Assembly (NCBI GenBank): GCA_948469315.1
Contig: CAOKLQ010000004.1
Coordinates: 3,517 to 67,516, forward strand
Direction of reading: 5' to 3'
Source of the DNA: an uncultured Clostridium sp.
GTDB lineage: Bacteria > Bacillota > Clostridia > TANB77 > CAG-508
DNA: 64,000 bases
Positions 8,991-47,400 of this stretch are shown piece by piece. Both the position numbers and the translations under genes were made by a program. Each line of letters starts with the position of its first letter. Position 1 is the stretch's first letter. Below the pieces are notes generated by a model, which saw nothing but the letters and a program-made list of their open reading frames with translations, was not told the origin of the DNA and searched no databases.

Positions 8991-9268
8991 CTACTCCTTA
9001 AAATATGTATTTTAAGGTTAGTTTTTCCATGTTTGGTATTTTTTATTCAGTATGCAATTTTTATAATTTTTCTATTTCTTCTTTTTTTTATACTTTTTAT
9101 ATACAATATTTTATAAAAAAACATGCAATATTTTTCAAAAAAATGTTGCATATTTCTTTTTTTATTGTATAATTAAATTAATAATCACATATTATAGTTA
9201 ATAATTCCCCTGTCAATTCGAAGCTTTACGTTTAGTACGTAAAAGGTATATGTAGATGAGATGGGGGA

Positions 9269-10114
9269 TTATTGATTTTCTCGTTTTTTAGTAAGCTTTC
9301 TATAATATGTAGAATTACTTGGTATAAATTTCCAATGTCTATAAGGTATAGTCCAGGTATTCATATCATGTAAACCTGTCGATACTCCTATATTAAAATT
9401 AGGATGAATCTCTCTAATTCTTTCTAATATATGTTTATAGAGTTTTTCTTTAGCAATAGTCTTTTTTCCTCTTTTATTACTGCTAGATAGTTTTTCTTTA
9501 TGAAAGTTATTTAATCTAAAATTAATTGAACCCAATATTATATCCATACACTGTAAAATAACATGGTTATGTGAAACTACTTCTGCTATGTTTTCTTTCT
9601 TTATATGAATATTGTTATCTTTAAATATATTTACATGATTTAATCCATATACAAAATCTATAAAAGTATTATTTCTATTTGGCGTATTAGGCAATTTATC
9701 AAAATAAAATCTAATATCAATTTCTTTATTTTTTAATGGATTACTATTTTCAAAACCAAACGCCCATTTTACAAATTGGTAATAAAGTAAATAGTATTCA
9801 TTATCTATTTGATTATCTGTTAAGTCATTTGCAATATAACAAACAGGTTTAAACATAATTCTAATTTTTATTTTACTTTCTTTTATATAATCAAAAAATA
9901 AATTTATTATTTCTTTATATTTTTCTAAATAACTCTCAGTTACTTTAGACCATTTTATTTCTCCAAATAAATTTAATTCTTCTTTCTTTTTATTTAAAAT
10001 TGTATTTAACTTGTTAATTTGTTTTGCATTAACAATAGCACCACCATAGAAATTTCCAAAATATTTCCCTTTTTTAGCTGATTCATCACAATATACAATA
10101 TATTCTTCTTTCAA
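9269..10114 (-). CDS. DUF3800-like protein
   Basis: 281-aa ORF. The N-terminal IVYCDESAKKG and C-terminal ILQCMDIILG blocks resemble the DUF3800 pattern as I recall it. Confidence 0.5.
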   Translation of the reverse strand: MKEEYIVYCDESAKKGKYFGNFYGGAIVNAKQINKLNTILNKKKEELNLFGEIKWSKVTESYLEKYKEIINLFFDYIKESKIKIRIMFKPVCYIANDLTDNQIDNEYYLLYYQFVKWAFGFENSNPLKNKEIDIRFYFDKLPNTPNRNNTFIDFVYGLNHVNIFKDNNIHIKKENIAEVVSHNHVILQCMDIILGSINFRLNNFHKEKLSSSNKRGKKTIAKEKLYKHILERIREIHPNFNIGVSTGLHDMNTWTIPYRHWKFIPSNSTYYRKLTKKRENQ

Positions 10115-13333: not shown

Positions 13334-13619
13334 ATGACTAATATAAATAAAAGTTCTTCAATGGAAGAACTTACAATCCGGTGGAAATATATATGATGCA
13401 GGAAATGCAAAAGAATTTAAAACAGGAGATTGGAGAAGTATTTATCCTAAATTTATATCCGAAAAATGCAAACAATGTGGACTATGTTTTCCAGTCTGCC
13501 CTGAAAATGCAATACCAGTAAACAAAGATTGCAAAAGAGAAGATTTTAATTACGATTATTGCAAAGGATGCGGAGTATGTGCAAAAGTATGCCCATTTGG
13601 TGCAATTGAAATGCATTAA
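13334..13619 (+). CDS. porD: 2-oxoacid:ferredoxin oxidoreductase delta subunit (2x[4Fe-4S] ferredoxin); needs a +1 shift at CGG 13379-13381
   Basis: The 0 frame stops after MTNINKSSSMEELTIRWKYI. Skipping one C in ATC-CGG-T gives ...TIGGNIYDAGNAKEFKTGDWRS...CKQCGLCFPVCPENAI...CKGCGVCAKVCPFGAIEMH. Confidence 0.8.
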
Positions 13620-13642
13620 ACTTATTAGAAATAGAATATTAT

Positions 13643-13830
13643 AACTTGCGAGCTGTTTGTGGGTGACCAATGAGCATTGTTAAAGCGAAGCTTGTTACAA
13701 TGCCATAGGGGAGGAGCGAGCAAGAACAAAAATAAAATTTATAAATAAACCCTTTGAAAGATTCTTAAGAAACCGTAGGTGTCTTAAGCAGGATGGGATT
13801 AAAAGGTAAGGGCAGAGCCCTTGGCCTTTT
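13643..13830 (-). repeat. ~186-bp structured repeat, family A copy 1 (inverted relative to copies 2-4)
   Basis: Reverse complement aligns end to end with 17231-17417. It lies between porD and porA. Confidence 0.9.
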
Positions 13831-13869
13831 AAAATAATAAAATTATATAAATAAGAAAGGATAAAAATA

Positions 13870-15051
13870 ATGCAAATTAGAGAACGTTTAAGTGGAAACG
13901 AAGCAGTAGCTATAGCTATGAAACAAATAAATCCAGATGTTGTTGCAGCATTTCCTATTACCCCTTCAACAGAAATACCACAATATTTTTCAACATTTGT
14001 TGCAAATGGAGATGTAGATACTGAATTTGTAGCAGTTGAAAGTGAGCACAGTGCCATGAGTGCTTGTATAGGAGCTCAAAGTGCTGGTGCAAGAGCTATG
14101 ACAGCGACATCTGCAAATGGTCTATCTTATATGTGGGAGATGATTTATATAGCATCTTCTTTAAGACTTCCTATTGTTATGTCTTTAGTAAATAGAGCTG
14201 TATCAGGTCCTTTAAATATACACAATGACCATTCAGATGCAATGGGAGTTCGTGATAGTGGTTGGATTATGCTATTTTCTGAAAACAATCAAGAAGCATA
14301 TGATAATACAATCATGGCTCATAGAATTGCTGAACATGAAAGTGTGTTATTGCCATTAATGGTATGTCAAGATGGTTTTATAACATCACATTCTATTGAA
14401 AATATTGAACTTTTAGATGATGAAACTGTAAAAAATTTCGTAGGAGAATATAAACCTACTCATTATCTATTAAATAAAAATGAGCCTATGGCAATAGGTC
14501 CACTTGACTTACAAGGATTTTTATTTGAACATAAAGCACAACAAGCTAAGGCTATGGAAAATGCAAAACAAGTAATTTTGGATGTTGCAAAAGATTTTGA
14601 AAAAATTACTGGAAGAAAATATTCTTTTTTTGAAGAATACAAGTTAGAAGACGCAGATATTGCAATAGTATGTATGAATTCAACTGCTGGAACAACAAAA
14701 TTTGTTGTAGATAATCTTAGGCAAAAAGGAATAAAAGCAGGTGTACTCAAAGTACGTATGTTTAGGCCATTTCCTGCAAAAGAAATTGCAAAAAGCCTAT
14801 CTCATTTAAAAGCAGTTGCTGTTTTAGATAAATCAGATTCTTTAAATGCTACAGGAGGCGCATTATTCGAAGATGTAACATCTGCTATGTATGTAAATAA
14901 TGCCCAAGTTCCAGTTGTAAATTACATTTATGGAATTGGTGGTAGAGATGTATCTACCAAAGATATTGAATCTGTTTATTTAAGTTTAGAAAAAATTGTA
15001 AAAGACAAAAACGCCGATAATCCATATAGATATTTAGGATTAAGAAAATAA
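13870..15051 (+). CDS. porA: 2-oxoacid:ferredoxin oxidoreductase alpha subunit
   Basis: 393-aa ORF with a typical POR/VOR alpha N-terminus (LSGNEAVAIAMKQINPDVVAAFPITPSTE). Confidence 0.9.
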   Translation: MQIRERLSGNEAVAIAMKQINPDVVAAFPITPSTEIPQYFSTFVANGDVDTEFVAVESEHSAMSACIGAQSAGARAMTATSANGLSYMWEMIYIASSLRLPIVMSLVNRAVSGPLNIHNDHSDAMGVRDSGWIMLFSENNQEAYDNTIMAHRIAEHESVLLPLMVCQDGFITSHSIENIELLDDETVKNFVGEYKPTHYLLNKNEPMAIGPLDLQGFLFEHKAQQAKAMENAKQVILDVAKDFEKITGRKYSFFEEYKLEDADIAIVCMNSTAGTTKFVVDNLRQKGIKAGVLKVRMFRPFPAKEIAKSLSHLKAVAVLDKSDSLNATGGALFEDVTSAMYVNNAQVPVVNYIYGIGGRDVSTKDIESVYLSLEKIVKDKNADNPYRYLGLRK

Positions 15052-15296
15052 ATTAAATATTACATAAAATAATAAATTAATCTAAAATTTAATCTTAATT
15101 ATCATACTATCTACATTATGTTTGAAAATACCTAAATATATATTTTTTTAGATATTCAAATCAAAAGCAAGTAATACAAAGCAATCAAGAAAAAAATTTT
15201 GAAATAATACATTTTGTATATTGAGAAATTTTTTTCGAAGATTAACGCAGTAATACGAAGCTTTTCATTTGAATTTAATGAAAGGAGAAAAAAACA

Positions 15297-16247
15297 ATGC
15301 CATATAATGTAAAAGAAATAGTTGCAAATAAACCTTCTAGGTTTACCGAAGGTCATAGAATGTGTGCTGGCTGTGGTGCTCCACCAATTGCTAGAATGGT
15401 ATTAAGAGCATTAAAAGAAGATGACCATGCAGTTATATCATGTGCAACAGGTTGTATGGAAGTTTCAACATTTATTTATCCATACACAGCATGGACAGAT
15501 TCTTTTATACATACAGCATTTGAAAGTACAGCGTCCGCCTTATCTGGCGCTGAAGCTGCATATAAATCATTAAAAAAGCAAGGAAAACTACCTAAGCAAA
15601 ATACTACAAAATTTATTGCCTTTGGTGGAGATGGAGGAACTTATGATATAGGACTTCAAAGCCTATCTGGTGCAATGGAAAGAAGGCATGATTTAACATA
15701 TGTATGTTATGACAATGGAGCATATATGAATACAGGAATTCAACGTTCATCTGCAACACCAAAATTTGCAGACACAACAACCTCGCCAGCAGGAAAAGTT
15801 ATACCTGGAAAAATGCAAACAAGAAAAGATTTAACCCAAATAATGTGTTCACATCATCTTCCATATATAGCCCAAACACTTGCAATGATGAATTTTAAAG
15901 ACTTATATGAAAAATCCGAAAAAGCAATTTATACAAAAGGTCCAACATTTTTAAATGTAATGAGCCCATGTCCACGTGGTTGGGGATATCCTACAGATGA
16001 GCTAATGGTTATCAACAAATTAGCAGCAGACACATGCTATTGGCCTTTATATGAAGTAGAAAATGGTATTTATAAAATAACATACAAACCAGCAAAAAAA
16101 CTTCCAATAGAAGAGTTTTTAAGACCACAAAAAAGATTTAAGCATATGTTTAAACAAGGTAATGAATGGATGATAGAGGAATTTCAAAAAGAGGTTGATA
16201 AAAGATGGGAAGAATTGCTTAAGTTAGAAGAAATGACAAATTTTTAA
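15297..16247 (+). CDS. porB: 2-oxoacid:ferredoxin oxidoreductase beta subunit (TPP-binding)
   Basis: 316-aa ORF with CAGCG near the N-terminus and a GGDGGTYDIG thiamine-diphosphate motif. Confidence 0.9.
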   Translation: MPYNVKEIVANKPSRFTEGHRMCAGCGAPPIARMVLRALKEDDHAVISCATGCMEVSTFIYPYTAWTDSFIHTAFESTASALSGAEAAYKSLKKQGKLPKQNTTKFIAFGGDGGTYDIGLQSLSGAMERRHDLTYVCYDNGAYMNTGIQRSSATPKFADTTTSPAGKVIPGKMQTRKDLTQIMCSHHLPYIAQTLAMMNFKDLYEKSEKAIYTKGPTFLNVMSPCPRGWGYPTDELMVINKLAADTCYWPLYEVENGIYKITYKPAKKLPIEEFLRPQKRFKHMFKQGNEWMIEEFQKEVDKRWEELLKLEEMTNF

Positions 16248-16432
16248 AAGGCCAAGGGCTCTGCCCTTACCTTTTAATCCCATCCCGCTTAAGACACCTT
16301 TGGTTTCTTAAGAATCTTTCAAAGGGATTATATATAAATTTTATTATCGTTCTTGCTCGCTCCTCCCCTATGGCATTGTAACAAGCTTCGCTTTAACAAT
16401 GCTCATTGGTCCCCACAAACAGCTCGCAAGTT
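16247..16432 (+). repeat. Family A repeat copy 2
   Basis: Starts at the porB stop codon with hairpin AAAAGGCCAAGGGC-TCT-GCCCTTACCTTTT and ends ...CAGCTCGCAAGTT. Confidence 0.9.
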
Positions 16433-16467
16433 ATGATTTTTATAAATATATATATAATATCTGTTTT

Positions 16468-17211
16468 TTATTTTTTCCTTTCTTGCATTTTATAAACAAA
16501 TTTTGTTGTTATATTATTCGGGCTTATTTTACTAATTACTCTTAAAAATTTTATTGTTATTCCAGGTGTTATTATAAATTTATTTTTTAGCATTTTTCTT
16601 ACTGCATATTTTGCAACATACTGGCTAGAAAGTGAGTGTAGATTAAATTTTACATCTGCTACATTATTAAAATTAGTATTTACTGGACCTGGGCATAGTA
16701 CACTTATTTTTACTTTAGATTTATCTTTTCTTAATTCTTCTCTTACCGCTTCTGATAGTCTTAACACATATGCTTTTGAAGAATAATATGTAGCCATTAG
16801 TGGCCCTGGCATAAATGCTGCAATTGATGATACATTTAATATATGTCCTGCATTTTTCTCTTTCATATCTCTCAAATATAATTTTGTCAATATATGAACT
16901 GCTGTAATATTTGTGTTTATCAAATTAATTTCTTTATCTAAATCAGTTTTTGTAAATTTACCAAATGTACCAAAACCTGCATTATTAATTAATATATCAA
17001 CATCTCTAACTTGATTATATAAACTTCTGCAATTTTCTGGATTACTTAAATCCATTGCAATTACTTCTACATTTGTTTTAATTTCTTCTTTTAATTTTAA
17101 TAATTTTTGCTCATTTCTTGCAACTATTACTAAATCATATCCCTTTTTAGCAAGCACTCTTGCCATATCTCTTCCTATTCCAGAAGATGCACCTGTAATT
17201 AATGCTTTCAT
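16468..17211 (-). CDS. SDR family short-chain dehydrogenase/reductase
   Basis: 247-aa ORF with TGASSGIG cofactor motif and YSSSKAY (YxxxK) catalytic motif. Confidence 0.9.
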   Translation of the reverse strand: MKALITGASSGIGRDMARVLAKKGYDLVIVARNEQKLLKLKEEIKTNVEVIAMDLSNPENCRSLYNQVRDVDILINNAGFGTFGKFTKTDLDKEINLINTNITAVHILTKLYLRDMKEKNAGHILNVSSIAAFMPGPLMATYYSSKAYVLRLSEAVREELRKDKSKVKISVLCPGPVNTNFNNVADVKFNLHSLSSQYVAKYAVRKMLKNKFIITPGITIKFLRVISKISPNNITTKFVYKMQERKK

Positions 17212-17230
17212 AAATTCTCCTTTTATTTCT

Positions 17231-17417
17231 AAAGGCCAAGGGCTCTGCCCTTACCTTTTAATCCCATCCCGCTTAAGACACCTTTGGTTTCTTAAGAATC
17301 TTTCAAAGGGATTATATATAAATTTTATTATCGTTCTTGCTCGCTCCTCCCCTATGGCATTGTAACAAGCTTCGCTTTAACAATGCTCATTGGTCACCCA
17401 CAAACAGCTCGCAAGTT
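17231..17417 (+). repeat. Family A repeat copy 3
   Basis: Near-identical to copy 2. It sits between the SDR start and the cadA 3' end. Confidence 0.9.
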
Positions 17418-17509
17418 TTAATTTTTATAATATATAATATCTTTTTTATTTTTTTTGAAATTATTTTATTTGTATAAAATTAAGTAATGGTTTCTTTTTG
17501 GGCAAGCAT

Positions 17510-17722
17510 TTATTTTAAGATTCTCAATGTATTAAATATAGTAATCAATGTAACACCCACATCTGCAAAAACAGCTTCCCACATATCTGATATACCTAAA
17601 ACTGCAAGTAACAATACTAATATTTTTACTCCTATTGAAAATATTAGATTTTGCTTTATTATCCTATTTGTTTTTTTAGAAATCTTAATTGCTGTATAAA
17701 TTTTGCTTATTTCATCTGTCAT
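17510..17722 (-). CDS. cadA: C-terminal fragment of heavy-metal P1B-type ATPase; joined to 17712..19289 by a +1 shift at CGG 17760-17762
   Basis: 70-aa ORF (MTDEISKIYTAIKISKKTNRIIKQNL...). Skipping a C in CTT-CGG-T restores GISMGGLGSSSAIEASDVVIMTDEISK. Confidence 0.75.
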   Translation of the reverse strand: MTDEISKIYTAIKISKKTNRIIKQNLIFSIGVKILVLLLAVLGISDMWEAVFADVGVTLITIFNTLRILK

Positions 17723-19289
17723 TATTACAACATCTGAGGCTTCTATTGCTGAGCTTGAACCGAAGTCCTCCCATAGAAATTCCTATATCTGCTCTTGCAA
17801 TTGATGGGCTATCATTTATTCCATCTCCTATAAATGCAATTTTATAATTTTCATTATTTTTATTTTGTTTTAAATCTTCTTCTAACTGGCTAAATTTATC
17901 CTGTGGAAGCATCCCAGCTTTAAATTCATCTATTTCAACTTTATTTGCTACTTCTTTTGCAACTTCATATCTATCTCCTGTAAACATTTTTGTTTTTATT
18001 CCTAAACTCTTAAGTTTTTGCAAGCTCTGTTTTGTATTTTTCTTTATTTCATCTTTTAAAACAATTTCTCCTTCTATTTTTTCATCTATAGACAAATATA
18101 ATACTGTTCCAACTTCACTCACATCATCTTGTGCTTTTGTATAGTCTTTATTTCCTATTTTTATATTTTTTCCTTCAAAATTATATTTTATCCCTTTGCC
18201 AGAAATCTCTTCTAAATTTTCTACTTTACTGCTATCTATGTTAGTATTTTTATATTCTAATATAGATTTTGCAATTGGGTGATTTGAAAAACTTTCTCCC
18301 ATTACAAAATATTTATATACTTCATCTTGGCTTAAATCACCATATGAAATTATTTTCTCTACTTTAAAATTTCCTGTTGTTATTGTTCCTGTTTTATCAA
18401 AAATAATTTGCCTTATTTGTCTTATTCCATCTAAATAGTCGCTACCTTTTATTAAAATTCCTTCTTTAGATGCCTTTCCAATTCCAGAAAAAAAGCTAAG
18501 TGGAACTGAAATTGCAATTGAACATGGACACGAAATTACTAAAAATATTAATGCTTTATAAATACTTTGGCTAAAACTTACATTTTTTATTACAAGTGGC
18601 ATAAATATTGCAACAATTGCTGCAAGCGCTATTACTATTGGAGTATATATTTTGGCTGCTTTTGAGACAAAGTTTTCTGTTTTTGCTTTCCTATTAGTTG
18701 CAGTTTCTACTAATTCTAAAATTTTATTTACAGTTGAATTACTATATATTTGTGTTACTTCTAATTCTATTAAACCATCTACATTTATGCTTCCAGATAA
18801 AACATTATCTCCTATTTTTACTTCTTCTAATTTAGACTCTCCTGTTAAAGCAGATGTATTTAAAAGCCCTTCTCCTTTTACAATAGTTCCATCTAAAGGA
18901 ATTTTCTCACCTGCTTTTACAATAATTATATCTCCTATCTTCACATCTTCTGGATTTACCTTTTTGTATTCATTTGCTTGTTTTAAATTTGCATATTCTG
19001 GTTTTATATCCATTAATTTTTTAATAGATTTCCTACTTTTTCCAACTGCTTTTGCTTCTAAAAACTCTCCAATCTCATATAAAATAATTACCATTAGGCC
19101 TTCTGACTCTTTTCCAACTAAATATGCACCTATACAAGATATTGTAATTAACATACTTTCATCTAAAACTCTATTTTTAATTAATTGTTTTATAGCTTTT
19201 TTGACTGTTTTAAATAATAAAACTACATAACTTACTATTATAAAAAATTTAGAAACTAATTCATTTTGAAAAACTCCCAAAAATCCCAT
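17712..19289 (-). CDS. cadA: Heavy-metal translocating P1B-type ATPase, core part
   Basis: 525-aa ORF with the CPC motif (VISCPCSIAIS), DKTGTIT and GDGINDSP. Confidence 0.85.
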   Translation of the reverse strand: MGFLGVFQNELVSKFFIIVSYVVLLFKTVKKAIKQLIKNRVLDESMLITISCIGAYLVGKESEGLMVIILYEIGEFLEAKAVGKSRKSIKKLMDIKPEYANLKQANEYKKVNPEDVKIGDIIIVKAGEKIPLDGTIVKGEGLLNTSALTGESKLEEVKIGDNVLSGSINVDGLIELEVTQIYSNSTVNKILELVETATNRKAKTENFVSKAAKIYTPIVIALAAIVAIFMPLVIKNVSFSQSIYKALIFLVISCPCSIAISVPLSFFSGIGKASKEGILIKGSDYLDGIRQIRQIIFDKTGTITTGNFKVEKIISYGDLSQDEVYKYFVMGESFSNHPIAKSILEYKNTNIDSSKVENLEEISGKGIKYNFEGKNIKIGNKDYTKAQDDVSEVGTVLYLSIDEKIEGEIVLKDEIKKNTKQSLQKLKSLGIKTKMFTGDRYEVAKEVANKVEIDEFKAGMLPQDKFSQLEEDLKQNKNNENYKIAFIGDGINDSPSIARADIGISMGGLRFKLSNRSLRCCNNDR

Positions 19290-19329
19290 TATAGCTATAA
19301 AAATACCTAAAACTAATCTAATAAATTCT

Positions 19330-19599
19330 CTATTTTGCTTTTTTGTATCTTCCCTGCCGATCTTGATTTGCAGTTTGTTCTTCTAAAATCTCAGTCTCTG
19401 GCTCTATTTTAGATACAATTTTCTTAATTTGCTTTAATGGCTCTTTTTCTTCAGTTTCAAATGTTAATTTTAATGTTGAGTAATTTAATACTACATTATT
19501 ATAACCTTGTGTACTTGCAATTTTATCTTCTATTTTTTTAGCACAATTTGCACAATCTAAATTTTTTACATCATATCTATACTTCTTCAATATGTTCAC
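19330..19599 (-). CDS. cadA: N-terminal heavy-metal-associated (HMA) domain of the same ATPase; joined by a +1 shift at CGG 19357-19359
   Basis: 89-aa ORF with the CxxC motif (LDCANCAKKIEDKI). Skipping a C in GAT-CGG-C reads ...QDGREDTKKQNREFIRLVLGIFIAIMGFLG into the core ORF. Confidence 0.75.
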   Translation of the reverse strand: MNILKKYRYDVKNLDCANCAKKIEDKIASTQGYNNVVLNYSTLKLTFETEEKEPLKQIKKIVSKIEPETEILEEQTANQDRQGRYKKAK

Positions 19600-19936
19600 G
19601 ACCTTTCATTACAATTTCGTTTACATGTTCATCATCTAAACTGTAATATACCACTTTTCCTTCTTTTCTATATTTTACAAGTTTTGCTTGTTTTAGTACT
19701 CTTAATTGATGAGAAATAGCACTTTGTGTTGTATTTGTTATAAATGCAATTTCTCCAACACATAACTCTTTTTCTTTAAGTGCACATATTATTTTCATTC
19801 TAGTTGAATCTGCAAATACTTTAAATAGCTCTGCTAAATCAAATATTTCTTCATCATTTATTATATTTTCTCTTACTTTATTTACTATATCTATTCTAAT
19901 AATATTTTGTTCCTGATTTTCATTTATTTCTTCCAT
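19577..19936 (-). CDS. ArsR/SmtB family metalloregulator (CadC-like)
   Basis: Contains ELCVGEIAFITNTTQSAISHQLRVLKQAKLVKYRKEGKVVYYSL. Start moved to ATG 19936, which follows the SD AAGGAG. The 3' end overlaps the cadA start. Confidence 0.85.
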   Translation of the reverse strand: MEEINENQEQNIIRIDIVNKVRENIINDEEIFDLAELFKVFADSTRMKIICALKEKELCVGEIAFITNTTQSAISHQLRVLKQAKLVKYRKEGKVVYYSLDDEHVNEIVMKGREHIEEV

Positions 19937-20156
19937 TTTGTTCTCCTTATTTTTATATTTGAACAATTATTCATATGTTCATTTATATTATATGTTTTAA
20001 ATTTTATTTTGTCAATATGTTTTTAGAATTAGTAAAATTTTTACAATTTAGTAGACATATTTGTAAAATTATGTTAATATAGAAGATAGTTTAGGTTGAT
20101 AGCCTATTGTAATAGTTGTTTAATATCTTAATTTTAATTAAAAGGAGGTTTTTATT

Positions 20157-20738
20157 ATGAGCGATTTAGAAAAAGTTTTAAAAATTGCGGAAGAGATTGA
20201 GGCAGATCGGATTAAAAAATATGAAAATATTTTGATGAAGTTTATGAGACAACAATCTAAATTTTCCCTTGAAAATTTAGATCCTTGGATTTTAAATGCT
20301 GGTGGAGTTCAATACACACTAGATGATCTTAAGTGTTCATATCTTGCTAAAGAAGACTTAAAACAAGCAGCAAAAAATTTAGGATTTGATTTTTGCTTTT
20401 CTGATGCAATTACATTTCTTATTAGTCTTTCTGATACTGAAATTTCAACTCCTGCAAAACAGTTTTTTGATAACTATAAAATAGCATTTACTAATGAAAG
20501 AGCAAGAATTGAAGGTCTAACACAAGAATATTACAATACTTTAATGTCTAATATTGCTAGTAAAAAGGATATTAAGGTGATAAAAAAATCAAAATCTTTT
20601 CACATAAAAGTAAAATTGCCTAGACCTAGCAAAAACAGTAGCTTTTATATGTGTATTGACAATCACATGGAAACTAAAGGATTTAAAGATGTTCATTTGT
20701 CAAATACATCTTGCTCCTTTGAAGTTCCTATTAAGTAA
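20157..20738 (+). CDS. Hypothetical protein
   Basis: 193-aa ORF with strong SD AAAGGAGG and a terminator hairpin at 20756-20802. One in-frame CGG (20208). Confidence 0.55.
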   Translation: MSDLEKVLKIAEEIEADRIKKYENILMKFMRQQSKFSLENLDPWILNAGGVQYTLDDLKCSYLAKEDLKQAAKNLGFDFCFSDAITFLISLSDTEISTPAKQFFDNYKIAFTNERARIEGLTQEYYNTLMSNIASKKDIKVIKKSKSFHIKVKLPRPSKNSSFYMCIDNHMETKGFKDVHLSNTSCSFEVPIK

Positions 20739-21073
20739 AAAAATTATATGTTCACAAAAAGACCTAAGAGTTTTGAAACTCTTAGGCCTTTTTTATATAT
20801 CTAGTTACAATTCACAGTTGTTAAAATACAATATTATTAAATATGTATTGTAGGGTCCATTATCAATCCCCGTTCTTCTAAAGATTTGCCAAAAAATATA
20901 ATATTAATATTTCTTCAATATAATTTTTTATATATTGCTTTTTGGGCTGTAAATTGTAACTATATGTAATGAAAAATGTCGAATATTGTTTATTTTTAAT
21001 TGACATAGATAATAAAATAATTTATACTTATATAGTAAATTGCAAATTGTAAAATATTAGGAGGTAATTAATA

Positions 21074-21370
21074 ATGCAAAAAAGTAAAGAACTTTCTTTT
21101 TTACTAACCTTTGAGTTTAATGATAGTTACCGTGTAAATCGGCATGGTACATGTAAAGCAAAAGTAGAAGTTAAACTTGCTTATGAATCACTAATATTAT
21201 GGCAAGGCACAGCTATGTGCAAGATTACTAAAAATGGAGAAATATCTTGGGATTTTCCAGATGAATGCCCTTTTCTTCTAGTTATTAAAACAAATGTTAA
21301 AACTTTATATACTGATGAAAGTATAAAGGAAATTTTTAACAAAATGAAGAAAAGAAAAGGTATAAATTAA
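21074..21370 (+). CDS. Hypothetical protein
   Basis: 98-aa ORF with SD TTAGGAGG and a bidirectional terminator at 21389-21426. One in-frame CGG (21140). Confidence 0.5.
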   Translation: MQKSKELSFLLTFEFNDSYRVNRHGTCKAKVEVKLAYESLILWQGTAMCKITKNGEISWDFPDECPFLLVIKTNVKTLYTDESIKEIFNKMKKRKGIN

Positions 21371-21423
21371 AATATTATTATATTACCAAAAAAAGAGGCA
21401 ACTTTTTAAAGTTTGCCTCCTTT

Positions 21424-22098
21424 TTATATTACATATAATAACACACATAAAAAATGCAACAAATTTGCAAAAAATATGCAAAGATGGAATATTGAGTGGG
21501 TATACTTATATTTTTTCCCTAAACCATAAAATATAGCACCTATTGTATATATTATTCCTCCTGCAACTAATAAGATAACTCCATTAATTCCAAGTAGTTT
21601 TGGTAGTATATTTATCTTTATTATAATACACCAACCCATTACTAAATAACATATCATTGAAAATATTTTATATCTTTTTAAATCTATTGCATTTAATGTA
21701 ATTCCAAGTGCTGCAAATCCCCATATTACCCCAAATATAGTCCATCCAAGTGCTGGATTATATTGCCTTAGAGTGCATAGTGCAAATGGTGTGTATGATC
21801 CTGCAATTAATATAAATATTGCACAATGATCTAATATCTGAAATACTTTTTTTGCTGTTGTATTGGATCTTAATCCATGATATATACTTGATGCTAAGTA
21901 TAATAAAATCATTGAAATGCCAAATATTATTCCGCAAATTACGCCATATGGATTATGCCTAATTCCTCCAAATACACTGCATAATACTATTACAACAATC
22001 CCAAGTACTCCTCCTACTATATGTGATACCATGTTAAATATTTCTTCTCCTTTTGTGTATGTAGGAAGCTCTCTTTGCGATAATTTTGTTCTTGTCAT
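21424..22098 (-). CDS. Hemolysin III / PAQR family membrane protein
   Basis: 224-aa ORF with seven hydrophobic segments and family blocks HIVGGVLG and DHCAIFILIAGSYTPF. Confidence 0.85.
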   Translation of the reverse strand: MTRTKLSQRELPTYTKGEEIFNMVSHIVGGVLGIVVIVLCSVFGGIRHNPYGVICGIIFGISMILLYLASSIYHGLRSNTTAKKVFQILDHCAIFILIAGSYTPFALCTLRQYNPALGWTIFGVIWGFAALGITLNAIDLKRYKIFSMICYLVMGWCIIIKINILPKLLGINGVILLVAGGIIYTIGAIFYGLGKKYKYTHSIFHLCIFFANLLHFLCVLLYVI

Positions 22099-22183
22099 TT
22101 TTCCTCCTTTTTTTATACAAGGTCTCTATCTTTACCTTTTTATAACATATAAAAATTATTCTTTATCCAATTTCTATTATTTT

Positions 22184-22369
22184 AAAAGGCCAAGGGCTCT
22201 GCCCTTACCTTTTTATCCCATCCCGCTTAAGAACCTAAAGGTTCTTAAAAATTTTCAAAAGGGTTATTTATAAATTTTAGATTTTCTCTTGCTCGCTCCT
22301 CCCCTATGGCATTGTAACAAGCTTCGCTTTAACAATGCTCATTGGTCACCCACAAACAGCTCGCAAGTT
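22184..22369 (+). repeat. Family A repeat copy 4 (diverged centre)
   Basis: Same ends as copies 2 and 3. The central hairpin changes to CTTAAGAACC-TAAA-GGTTCTTAA, so pairing is preserved. Confidence 0.85.
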
Positions 22370-22429
22370 TTAGTTAATATGTGTAAATTAATTTATATAA
22401 AATTTTGTGTTTTTATTATATAATAATCT

Positions 22430-29009: not shown

Positions 29010-29054
29010 ATATGTTTTATTGTAAAAAGAAAATGGGGCATTTGCCCCATATCT

Positions 29055-29354
29055 TTATTTAAATCTCTTTGTAAAATCATATAACCTTGTTTCAAGATTT
29101 CGTTTTGCTCTTATATTATCTTTTGTCATTTTTAATTCATCACTCATAGAGTAAATAAAGCATAAATTTTGGAAATCATATTCATCTAATATTTCTACTC
29201 TATGGCTTCTTTGCAAAGCATACTCTAAATATTCTATGAGTTTTTTGACCTTTTGTTCATCACTTGTATAAAATCCTACTTTAATTTCTTTTACTATGCT
29301 TTCTAATACTACACCATTCATTTTGTCATCACTCATTTGTTTCATAATGTCCAC
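29055..29354 (-). CDS. Hypothetical protein
   Basis: 99-aa ORF followed by terminator hairpin ATGGGGCA-ttt-GCCCCAT (29033-29050). Confidence 0.5.
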   Translation of the reverse strand: MDIMKQMSDDKMNGVVLESIVKEIKVGFYTSDEQKVKKLIEYLEYALQRSHRVEILDEYDFQNLCFIYSMSDELKMTKDNIRAKRNLETRLYDFTKRFK

Positions 29355-32267: not shown

Positions 32268-32327
32268 TTTAATAAAAAAAGATTAATATATTTTTACGTA
32301 GCAACAATTCGGGGGGACCGACAAGTT

Positions 32328-32385
32328 ACAATCTGCTAAAAATAATAAAATTTAAACTTCAATTTTATTATTTTTAGCAGATTGT
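32328..32385. repeat. Perfect 24-bp inverted repeat with a 10-nt loop
   Basis: ACAATCTGCTAAAAATAATAAAAT / ATTTTATTATTTTTAGCAGATTGT, enclosed by an outer GCAAC/GTTGC pairing and G-rich flanks. No T run follows it. Confidence 0.6.
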
Positions 32386-32445
32386 TCGTGGTTGGGAGTT
32401 GCAGTAAATATATTAATTCTTTTTAGCAATCAAATAAAATAAAAC

Positions 32446-41204: not shown

Positions 41205-42158
41205 ATGGAGGTTATAATAATGTCTTCTTACGAATTTGATTTTTATGATAAAACAAGCTTAAAATCTTATAATTTAACATCTAGTATGAGATATCAGCTT
41301 TCTATGTTAGATAAATTAGATGTTTTTACTAAAAAACACTGTGAAAATGTTGCAAGTATAGTTTGTAGAATATGTGAATATTTACATTTAAATAAAAACT
41401 TCACTTCTTATTGCACTATTTGTGCATATTTACATGATATTGGAAAATTATTTATTCCTCCAAAAATTTTACAAAAACCAGGTAAGCTTACAGATGAAGA
41501 ATATGAAATTATAAAAACACATACTTTAATTGGTTATAAAATGTGTATGGATGATTTGCAATTAAGACCTTATGCACTAGGTGCTAAATACCATCATGAA
41601 TGTTTAGATGGAAGTGGATATCCTGAAGGGTTACAAGGAAAACAAATTCCTTTAGAAGATCAAATTATAAAAGTTGCAGATGAATATGATGCAATTGTTT
41701 CTAAACGTCAATACAAAACACATGTTAATATATCTGATACTTTGAAAATATTAATAAAAGAAGCTCAGCCTTCAAATAAAGAAATTGCATTAGATAATGC
41801 AGCAAGTCGTGCAAAAGTTGGAAAGCTTAATAAAAAGGTTGTAAAAACTTTATTTAAAGTTGTTATTGAAGACACTGAGTATGAAATTAGTTGTTTAACT
41901 GGATATTTAGATTTTTTAAAAGAACAAATTAAAAGATTAAATACTATTTTGGATTATGAAATAAAAATGAATAATGCTACTAATGAAAAAAAGAAAAATT
42001 ACTTTAAAGAAGGTATGAAACTTCTATTTTCTGAAGGTGAAAATTACGATAATTATCAGACAGTTCTTGAAGAATATAAAACTGCATTAAAAGAAAGACA
42101 AAAGATTATAGATGATTTATATAATGAAATCAAAATTATTAAAAAATTAAAGGTATAA
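41205..42158 (+). CDS. HD-GYP domain phosphohydrolase (putative c-di-GMP phosphodiesterase)
   Basis: 317-aa ORF with YLHDIGK (HD) and KYHHECLDGSGYPEGL (HHExxDGxGYP). Confidence 0.8.
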   Translation: MEVIIMSSYEFDFYDKTSLKSYNLTSSMRYQLSMLDKLDVFTKKHCENVASIVCRICEYLHLNKNFTSYCTICAYLHDIGKLFIPPKILQKPGKLTDEEYEIIKTHTLIGYKMCMDDLQLRPYALGAKYHHECLDGSGYPEGLQGKQIPLEDQIIKVADEYDAIVSKRQYKTHVNISDTLKILIKEAQPSNKEIALDNAASRAKVGKLNKKVVKTLFKVVIEDTEYEISCLTGYLDFLKEQIKRLNTILDYEIKMNNATNEKKKNYFKEGMKLLFSEGENYDNYQTVLEEYKTALKERQKIIDDLYNEIKIIKKLKV

Positions 42159-47232: not shown

Positions 47233-47326
47233 ATATTTTCCTCCTCTTATGGCTTTTCCATAATTTTCTTTAATATAATATATGAATTTGGGCAAAAAGT
47301 CAATGTTTTGTTGTGTGTTTTTATGT

Positions 47327-47360
47327 AAAATCCCTAAGCCAAAAATTGCTTAGGGATTTT
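47327..47360. terminator. Bidirectional terminator at the left edge of the island
   Basis: AAAATCCCTAAGC-caaaaatt-GCTTAGGGATTTT. A second hairpin TAATAAGG...CCTTATTA follows at 47363-47391. Confidence 0.7.
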
Positions 47361-47400
47361 ATTAATAAGGTTTAAAACTTTCGCCTTATTAAGTGTCATT

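Follow-up and report, generated by a model that had tools for sequence, protein, structure and literature searches.

Analysis of a 64,000-nucleotide stretch of the genome of an uncultured Clostridium sp. (the window; G000:C4:3517-67516, from an assembly of 1.86 Mb in 51 contigs with 26.4% G+C) revealed a structured repeat, here called family A, that occupies spacers between genes, including those between the co-transcribed por, fab and suf genes. We propose, with a probability of about 0.62, that family A belongs to the small interspersed repeats, being non-autonomous, mosaic and about 200 bp long, and that it has multiplied in this lineage by intergenic insertion, with an orientation filter set by transcription and with co-transcription of the inserted copies. 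As a small bacterial repeat it is of a known kind, but the family is new. Comparison of copies and genomes established its copy number, its lineage-specific insertion, its local spread, a conserved fold with compensatory changes, its modularity and the sharing of its core with other repeats. Each copy is built of a left module of two hairpins (hairpins 1 and 2), an A+T-rich linker carrying TATAAAT, and a right core, which is an irregular hairpin of ~85 nt with two C-rich loops.

The initial annotation of the window had reported four copies, and a covariance model recovered all four at the coordinates and in the orientations given there (222-245 bits). Two diagnostic words of 22 and 28 nt each occurred four times in the window and not once in 100 shuffles, and all four copies are intergenic. 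Genome-wide, BLAST, iterated nhmmer and the covariance model agreed on 28 copies on nine contigs, every one of them intergenic, comprising 26 full-length and 2 partial copies with 70-100% identity to the query and 70-99.5% likeness among themselves; the BLASTN census that the annotation had proposed thus showed that the four known copies are only part of the family. Outside its own assembly, an exact 25-nt pattern was found in a single public genome, a gut metagenome-assembled genome labelled 'uncultured Clostridium sp.' Covariance-model matches at window positions 47275-47392 and 29022-29122 were weak and unrelated to family A.

The annotation had named a purely local segmental duplication as an outcome that would undo its proposal. 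The four window copies are indeed each other's closest relatives and the most similar set, and copies 2 and 3 are 99.5% identical, with right flanks that stay alike for a further ~45 nt. The left flanks differ, however, 24 more copies lie on eight other contigs, and copies are present in three other species and in metagenome contigs, so that local duplication as the whole explanation is already refuted. Copies less than 12 kb apart were 87% alike compared with 81% for distant ones (p = 5e-5), a likeness of neighbours that points to local spread or gene conversion.

Alignment of the 26 full copies (alignment A2) gave a consensus fold in which the three hairpins described in the initial annotation are present. 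Hairpin 1 has the consensus AAAGG-CC-AAGGGC / GCCCTT-A-CCTTT, and hairpin 2 the consensus CTTAAGA / TCTTAAG. Pairing was possible in 97.8% of cells, and 11 pairs and 48 cells were changed on both sides, values matched by none of 500 column shuffles, with slid controls reaching at most 5 pairs. The significant covariation that the annotation had made a touchstone of its proposal was therefore found, and the paired changes that it had noticed in hairpin 2 extend more widely, to hairpin 3 and to the apical stem. For example, CTTAAGA/TCTTAAG was replaced by CCAAAGAACC/GGTTCTTTGG in hairpin 2, GGCATTGT/ACAATGCTC by ATATTGTTGT/ACAACAATT in hairpin 3 (along with similar changes), and AAGC/GCTT by AATC/GATT in the apical stem; in three copies CCAAAG.../...CTTTGG took the place of the usual hairpin 2 stem, and in relatives the AAGGGC/GCCCTT of hairpin 1 became AGGGGC/GCCCCT.

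Helices 3-5, which form the core, held 8 of the 11 compensatory pairs. Hairpin 3 as first described is real but is not a whole unit, representing instead the upper part of the ~85-nt domain, whose two internal loops are rich in C. CTTGC/GCAAG (P1) and GCT/AGC close this domain, which contains a 10-bp bulged stem and carries two C-rich stretches, CUCCUCCCC and GGUC(A)CCCAC, that are unpaired in the consensus fold. TATAAAT was present in 26/26 full copies, with its first six letters invariant and the last letter replaced by A in one copy, and was kept in 5/6 copies of other species; its rate of private substitutions per column was the lowest in the element (0.14 vs 0.7-0.9 in the linkers).

The fold does not designate a strand. 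Folding z-scores were -4.4 for the top and -4.2 for the bottom strand, and although the G-rich bottom strand folded ~10 kcal/mol better in 26/26 copies, a strand call from this difference was dropped as a composition effect, since shuffled sequences showed the same gap. A call from wobble pairs was equally uninformative, singleton stem changes giving 7 G.T vs 6 A.C. This strand-symmetric structure fits a DNA-level element or an RNA read from either strand. Several other readings of the sequence were set aside: a pairing of AAUCCC with GGGAUU around hairpin 2, whose 3' partner was neither conserved nor covarying; a small open reading frame of 12 codons in the core, whose frame was lost in subfamilies; and a resemblance to integron attC sites, twister or hammerhead ribozymes or T-boxes, whose motifs misfit and for which Rfam gave no match. 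No Rfam 15 family reached its gathering threshold on any copy, the best hit at E values up to 10 being noise (22.5 bits vs a gathering score of 60).

Comparison with related genomes indicated that the copies arrived by insertion. Family A was found in 4 of 26 species genomes of the genus (28 copies in G000, 4 in G019, 2 in G021 and at least 3 in G041) and in none of 16 other genomes of the order. The porD-porA spacer, 251 nt here, is empty and 38 nt long in G041 and short in ~10 other genomes of the genus. Six spacers of the fab operon measure 224-433 nt here vs 0-97 nt in G021, G022 and G003, and family A is present in five of the six, as a full or a partial copy. Likewise, a spacer between paralogous response-regulator and kinase genes is empty on contig C35 and filled on C11. 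The scarcity of the family among relatives together with their empty orthologous spacers argues that the copies are lineage-specific insertions and not a core RNA gene or a riboswitch. All of these empty-site comparisons (G041, G019, G021 and the paralogous locus) show insertion, with junctions that are ambiguous in A+T-rich sequence.

The same spacers have received other sequences as well. In G019 the porD-porA spacer holds a different insert of ~165 nt, and in the fab operons of G041 and G019 (loci L081/L082) and at L099 (G041:C19) further unrelated insertions were observed, among them a 172-nt element also present in G000, an element of ~360 nt starting AAAAGCCCCCGTGGTGGCAGGC, and GTAG-tagged REP hairpins. 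The operon spacers of the genus are general landing sites for many repeat families. A strain in sample SRR11792749 carries an end of another repeat, family Y, in the fabF-accB spacer where this genome has family A; in a Logan contig of that strain (L103) fabZ is identical, accB has diverged and the accB-fabZ spacer is different. These differences show strain-level turnover or recombination in repeat-filled spacers. The species is also carried in DNA run SRR32020740 and in ENA ERZ14651006. Contigs of two other samples break inside copy 1 at the same site, and contigs of two other samples likewise end inside copy 4 at the same site.

Examination of gene context revealed a strict orientation. In 26 of the 28 copies, the GCAAGT end faces the stop codon of a gene on the opposite strand, so that reading in the direction of the gene passes the core, ATTTATA, hairpin 2 and hairpin 1 before reaching the next gene, which for most copies is co-oriented and starts 17-110 nt after hairpin 1. 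Convergent genes flank seven copies, and for three of the seven hairpin 1 begins -1 to 11 nt past the stop codon of the other gene; in copy 2 it begins on the porB stop codon itself and has a terminator-like score on the + strand. The neighbours are unrelated housekeeping genes, including those for por subunits; accC, fabZ, accB, fabF, fabG and fabD; sufB, sufD, sufS and sufU; eno, glmU, metG, aspS, era and recO; and rRNA-modifying enzymes. Pfam confirmed the por and fab genes that were tested.

This placement could be read as that of a cis-regulatory leader, riboswitch- or attenuator-like, upstream of the genes that it controls, given that in most copies a terminator-like hairpin ends the element shortly before the next start codon. 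However, no common function links the genes downstream, the interval to the start codon varies, the convergent-gene copies have no place in such a scheme, Rfam offers no match, and the empty orthologous spacers of relatives bring this reading close to refutation.

Direction of transcription and direction of replication are nearly confounded in this genome, where ~90% of genes are co-oriented with the G-C skew, and 27 of the 28 copies have the same orientation relative to replication. The exception lies in the por operon, a lagging-strand island on the opposite strand, where the copy is flipped along with the genes though it is 96% identical to copies 2.5-3.5 kb away. In this one informative case, family A orientation follows transcription. 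A terminator scan accepted hairpin 1 on the top strand only (tail ACCTTTTAAT), the bottom-strand tail being one T shorter.

We propose that antisense orientation is nearly absolute because transcription filters which insertions survive. A copy inserted in the top-strand orientation would present hairpin 1 with its better U-tract and would terminate the operon transcript, whereas on the bottom strand hairpin 1 would be read through, so that only antisense insertions would persist inside operons. Between convergent genes, a hairpin 1 placed directly after a stop codon may serve as the terminator of that gene. An inserted copy would be co-transcribed as a stable stem-loop array within the operon mRNA and probably modulates mRNA processing and stability, as REP, ERIC, BOX and Correia repeats do. 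The mobilising enzyme would act in trans and would not be a classical IS200/IS605 TnpA.

The ends of the element bear on how it moved. At the right end, conservation continues ~8-14 nt past the end first assigned, giving the consensus GCAAG-YTNTARTTT, and the YTNTART motif after GCAAG may itself belong to the element; at the left end a T-rich tract precedes hairpin 1. Comparison of copies bore out the earlier statement that the two ends (AAAGGCCAAG... and ...GCTCGCAAGT) are not inverted repeats of each other, as they are not complementary. No target duplication was seen at the flanks, but A+T-rich flanks and divergent empty sites blur the junctions. The inverted termini matching an insertion sequence that, along with a target duplication, define a classical MITE (miniature inverted-repeat transposable element) are lacking, and the preference in the initial annotation for a dispersed structured repeat over a classical MITE is upheld by the 28 copies and by ends that are not inverted.

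The specific origin preferred there, a PATE, or miniature IS200/IS605 derivative moved as single-stranded DNA by a Y1 HUH transposase acting in trans, fared less well and appears improbable. Such an element would account for the lack of terminal inverted repeats and of a visible target duplication, the strong hairpins, the nearly uniform orientation relative to replication and the short conserved motif just outside the GCAAG end, and one Y1_Tnp gene is present in the genome. The full-length parent carrying tnpA/tnpB for which the annotation proposed to look was, however, not found in the genome, its relatives, phages, plasmids and viral contigs: nhmmer and the covariance model returned only copies of ~190 nt and shorter fragments, the phage, plasmid and viral-contig collections had no family A match, and no tnpB was seen beside any copy. 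The sole Y1_Tnp match in the genome is a single-copy gene for a RAYT-like protein of 268 amino acids, whose 3.3-kb locus contains no family A sequence, and RAYT-like genes occur in ~15 of the 26 genus genomes irrespective of family A. Classical IS200 TnpA genes (~160 amino acids) were found only in genus genomes without family A. In addition, the two ends carry unrelated structures, hairpin 1 (AAGGGC/GCCCTT) on the left and the P1-closed core on the right, which do not resemble each other as the left-end and right-end subterminal hairpins of a PATE should. Finally, the recent por copy, which follows transcription, lies on the 'wrong' strand for lagging-strand targeting.

The presence of the RAYT-like gene, with GTAG-tagged G+C-rich REP hairpins in the same spacers, raises a related idea, that family A is a REPIN-like substrate of this Y1 protein. 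We consider this very improbable. Family A contains no short palindrome tagged with GTAG, nor does it form an inverted doublet; no copy flanks the RAYT gene, the presence of RAYT among genomes is unrelated to that of family A, and the separate REP family is the obvious RAYT substrate.

The mosaic nature of family A was apparent from its partial copies, which consisted of hairpin 1 alone, of the left module with an internally deleted core, or of a fusion of hairpin 1 to the core. One copy in G019 (L040; G019:C6, ~21043-21170) has lost its interior between the apex of hairpin 1 (GGCTTTGC) and that of the core hairpin, which is nearly identical, apparently through a microhomology deletion; its G021 orthologue is cut by a contig end. 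At a syntenic locus, a candidate 'source gene' of the core was discarded on being recognised as a copy that is truncated or has an internal deletion.

The core also occurs outside family A. A shared plan of P1, CUCCC(A/C), a hairpin, (C/U)GGUC(N)CCC(A/C)C and P1' was found with other flanks in families X (15 copies), Y (6 copies), Z (the insert in the por spacer of G019) and W (at least 11 copies in another genus), and a pattern search of 151 genomes of the order found genuine core relatives only in other genera of the same bacterial family. Family X forms a near-perfect long hairpin of ~150 nt with termini AAAGGTTATTATATG, and shorter X-like elements are present in G045, G046 and G075. Family W of G042 (loci L085-L091) has 28-nt inverted termini (GTCCTGCAACAGGAAAYTATTTTTAAA), with several copies in tandem at a spacing of ~220-240 nt; W and A have the AAC/UA internal loop in common, and the stems around it covary. 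Both X and W possess long inverted termini, unlike family A. In most core families the 3' motif can form a mini-hairpin with UCCCC in its loop. Family X lies in either orientation and family Y mostly in sense, so that strict antisense placement is peculiar to family A, where it probably belongs to the left module.

A conserved middle with variable ends is the reverse of an ordinary MITE, which keeps its ends and leaves its middle free to vary. This pattern raises the doubtful prospect that the ~85-nt core is a functional nucleic-acid cargo and the real selected unit, carried in at least five repeat shells in several genera of the bacterial family. Such a unit would run from P1 through a CUCCC loop, a hairpin bearing AAC/UA or UAAC and a GGUCCCC loop set on a mini-stem to P1'. 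As a transcribed RNA, the core could act through C-rich loops mimicking the anti-Shine-Dalgarno sequence or, from the other strand, through GGA loops offered to an RNA-binding protein. Alternatively, it could be a recognition or guide element of the mobilising enzyme.

A more specific proposal, which we regard as unlikely, is that each copy is a gene cassette for a small RNA (sRNA), in which TATAAAT or TTCAAA-18-TATTAT serves as promoter for the top-strand core, producing an sRNA of ~95 nt. Its C-rich loops (CCUCCCC, an anti-Shine-Dalgarno mimic, and GGUCCCCAC) would bind ribosome-binding sites, and hairpin 1 would insulate it from upstream read-through, an arrangement compatible with mobility. 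UCCC-motif sRNAs of Firmicutes (RsaE/RoxS, LhrC) bind ribosome-binding sites through C-rich motifs. In keeping with such a cassette, the top-strand match TTCAAA-18-TATTAT stops 7-8 nt short of P1; private substitutions are fewest in TATAAAT and the core, the best kept parts; a T-rich tail (YTNTARTTT) follows P1; the consensus fold leaves the C-rich segments unpaired; the core stays conserved between families and genera whose shells differ; and antisense placement would spare the unit from operon read-through.

Other features speak against it. The -35 region is poor, TATAAAT lacks T at the last position of the -10 hexamer, and the TANNNT hexamer that forms the -10 of the longer match is not conserved. 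Promoter-like sites occurred at chance frequency (54 found vs 56.8 expected), such hexamers being abundant at 26% G+C. Families X and W have no T-tail after P1, families X and Y occur in both orientations, neither wobble pairs nor folding reveal a strand asymmetry, and 28 gene copies of one sRNA would be unprecedented. An archaeal TATA-box promoter, which the 26% G+C and the porCDAB genes had brought to mind, was dropped as the nearest public genome is the 'uncultured Clostridium sp.' assembly and the gene organisation looks Firmicute-like.

Several observations weigh against the interpretation of family A as a transcription-filtered interspersed repeat and should be set beside those that favour it. 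No mobilising gene was identified for family A. Comparison of near-identical strains did not catch an insertion event, and all three of the sites checked in other samples are filled. Besides the conserved 200 bp, filled spacers contain a further 26-155 nt of A+T-rich sequence, with ambiguous junctions. Just one copy separates transcription from replication, and the terminator asymmetry of hairpin 1 is small (5 vs 4 T in the scan window). Private substitutions in the core and TATAAAT are 3-4 times rarer than in the linkers. Lastly, an old copy in the spacer between the 'EYQKI' gene and the uracil-DNA glycosylase gene is found at the same site in G021 and in a metagenome contig, with a derived apical-stem variant common to the sites; its overall identity is 79%, and compared with G021 the core is 84% identical, close to the 85% of the neighbouring gene. 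The low core substitution and this old orthologous copy hint at a function of individual copies, which a selfish repeat does not explain.

The features located in the window are collected in Table 1. They include a family X copy, which explains the 'perfect 24-bp inverted repeat' with G-rich shoulders that had been noticed downstream of engB.

Table 1. Positions of family A copies, of the parts of copy 3 and of a family X copy, in window coordinates.
Feature	Position	Strand	Covariance-model score (bits)	Description
Family A copy 1	13633..13833	-	243.6	porD-porA spacer of the pyruvate:ferredoxin oxidoreductase operon; antisense to the operon
Family A copy 2	16243..16442	+	244.8	Between convergent porB (+) and short-chain dehydrogenase gene (-)
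Family A copy 3	17227..17427	+		Flanked by two minus-strand genes; upstream of the dehydrogenase gene, 19 nt from its start codon; antisense
Family A copy 4	22181..22379	+		Between minus-strand hemolysin-III-like and YqeY genes; antisense
Hairpin 1, copy 3	17231..17258	+		AAAGG-CC-AAGGGC-TCT-GCCCTT-A-CCTTT; G+C-rich stem between A and T runs; A2 columns 5-33
Hairpin 2, copy 3	17272..17296	+		CTTAAGA-CACC-TTT-GGT-T-TCTTAAG
TATAAAT, copy 3	17317..17323	+		In the A+T-rich linker, 11 nt before the core domain
Core domain, copy 3	17335..17416	+		P1 CTTGC/GCAAG; 5' loop UCGCUCCUCCCC; 3' loop GGUCACCCACAAAC; AAC/UA internal loop; apical AAGC-UUC-GCUU
Family X copy	32272..32424 (G000:C4:35788-35940)	-		Core motifs CTCCCAAC ... 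GGTCCCCCCGAAT; same superfamily, outside family A

Further observations concerned neighbouring genes. The porD gene (13335-13619), encoding the 4Fe-4S delta subunit of pyruvate:ferredoxin oxidoreductase, contains a +1 frameshift ~15 codons in (ATG ACT ... ACA ATC C GGT GGA). The same letters were found in two independent assemblies from other samples, so that this is not an assembly error; the frameshift represents either a pseudogene, a recoding site or an internal restart. Two orphan open reading frames (G000:C5:43969-44271 and 41529-41810; locus L077), encoding 100 and 93 amino acids, lie antisense inside fab operon spacers and are absent from the compact fab operons of relatives, and the former, of 100 amino acids, has a strong ribosome-binding site and its own terminator. 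They were rejected as candidate mobilising genes, being single-copy, without a Pfam match and without a link to family A. The only Rfam match in the window is a DUF3800-VIII RNA at 9204-9270 (+), with 50.3 bits vs a gathering score of 40.2.

Few parts of bacterial genomes are understood as poorly as small structured repeats, and in uncultured low-G+C gut Clostridia knowledge of them is almost nil. Family A is an extreme case, in which compact essential operons for fatty-acid synthesis, Fe-S assembly and pyruvate oxidoreductase have been stretched in almost every spacer, in one orientation and with their genes intact, providing a natural experiment in the tolerance of operons for structured RNA and in the filtering of orientation. 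Metagenome assemblies also break at repeats of this type, the contigs of three samples ending inside copies. Only the shared core holds out the prospect of something new, which could be a mobile RNA cargo or else a new system of mobilisation.

Comparison of family A with known repeats suggested that its closest analogues are the BOX-type modular repeats, which fold into stem-loops and mirror coding bias (PMC3049150). Like the boxA/B/C elements of S. pneumoniae and the BOX-type families of S. suis, which are around or under 200 bp and non-coding (PMC3049150), family A combines modules in different permutations, is predicted to form stable stem-loops when transcribed, is present in dozens of intergenic copies in a Firmicute genome of ~2 Mb with an orientation that mirrors coding bias, has no convincing dedicated transposase and is not tied to one gene class. 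Its separable modules, its stable stem-loops (z about -4.3) and the antisense placement of 26/28 copies are the specific points of agreement. It differs from BOX in that no sequence similarity was found, in lacking the terminal inverted repeats and visible target duplication that BOX possesses, and in having a core with C-rich loops conserved across genera; and unlike the pneumococcal repeats, which are enriched downstream of genes, it lies mostly between co-transcribed genes, in antisense.

Other systems share fewer features. Like SPRITE, family A is dispersed and has a terminator-like hairpin near gene 3' ends that was possibly co-opted as a terminator (PMC3049150), but SPRITE is a single long duplex with a U-tract, whereas family A has two further structured modules and is mostly oriented with its hairpin as the weaker terminator. 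Like REP/BIME, ERIC and Correia (NEMIS) elements, it is a structured intergenic repeat that lies inside operons and would be co-transcribed; those elements affect mRNA stability, processing or termination, and BIMEs are mosaics of motifs (PMC3184786, PMC10969869). They come, however, from Gram-negative bacteria and differ in phylum as well as in sequence. A REP is a palindrome of 20-40 nt with a link to RAYT, whereas terminal inverted repeats characterise ERIC and Correia, the latter also duplicating TA; family A exhibits none of these features and belongs to none of these families. With PATEs and the ends of IS200/IS605 elements it shares the lack of inverted termini and of an evident target duplication, the wealth of hairpins and the strong orientation bias, in contrast to which stand the lack of a TnpA/TnpB parent, the unlike end structures and an orientation that follows transcription in one informative case. 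Finally, with the UCCC-motif sRNAs (RsaE/RoxS, LhrC family) it shares a conceivable structured RNA of ~100 nt with 2-3 unpaired C-rich motifs that could base-pair to Shine-Dalgarno sequences. The LhrC family is multicopy, and UCCC-motif sRNAs are proven transcripts of 1-7 chromosomal genes and are not mobile, whereas family A has 28 copies and a putative transcript. In sum, family A works like a BOX-type repeat without being a member of the BOX family.

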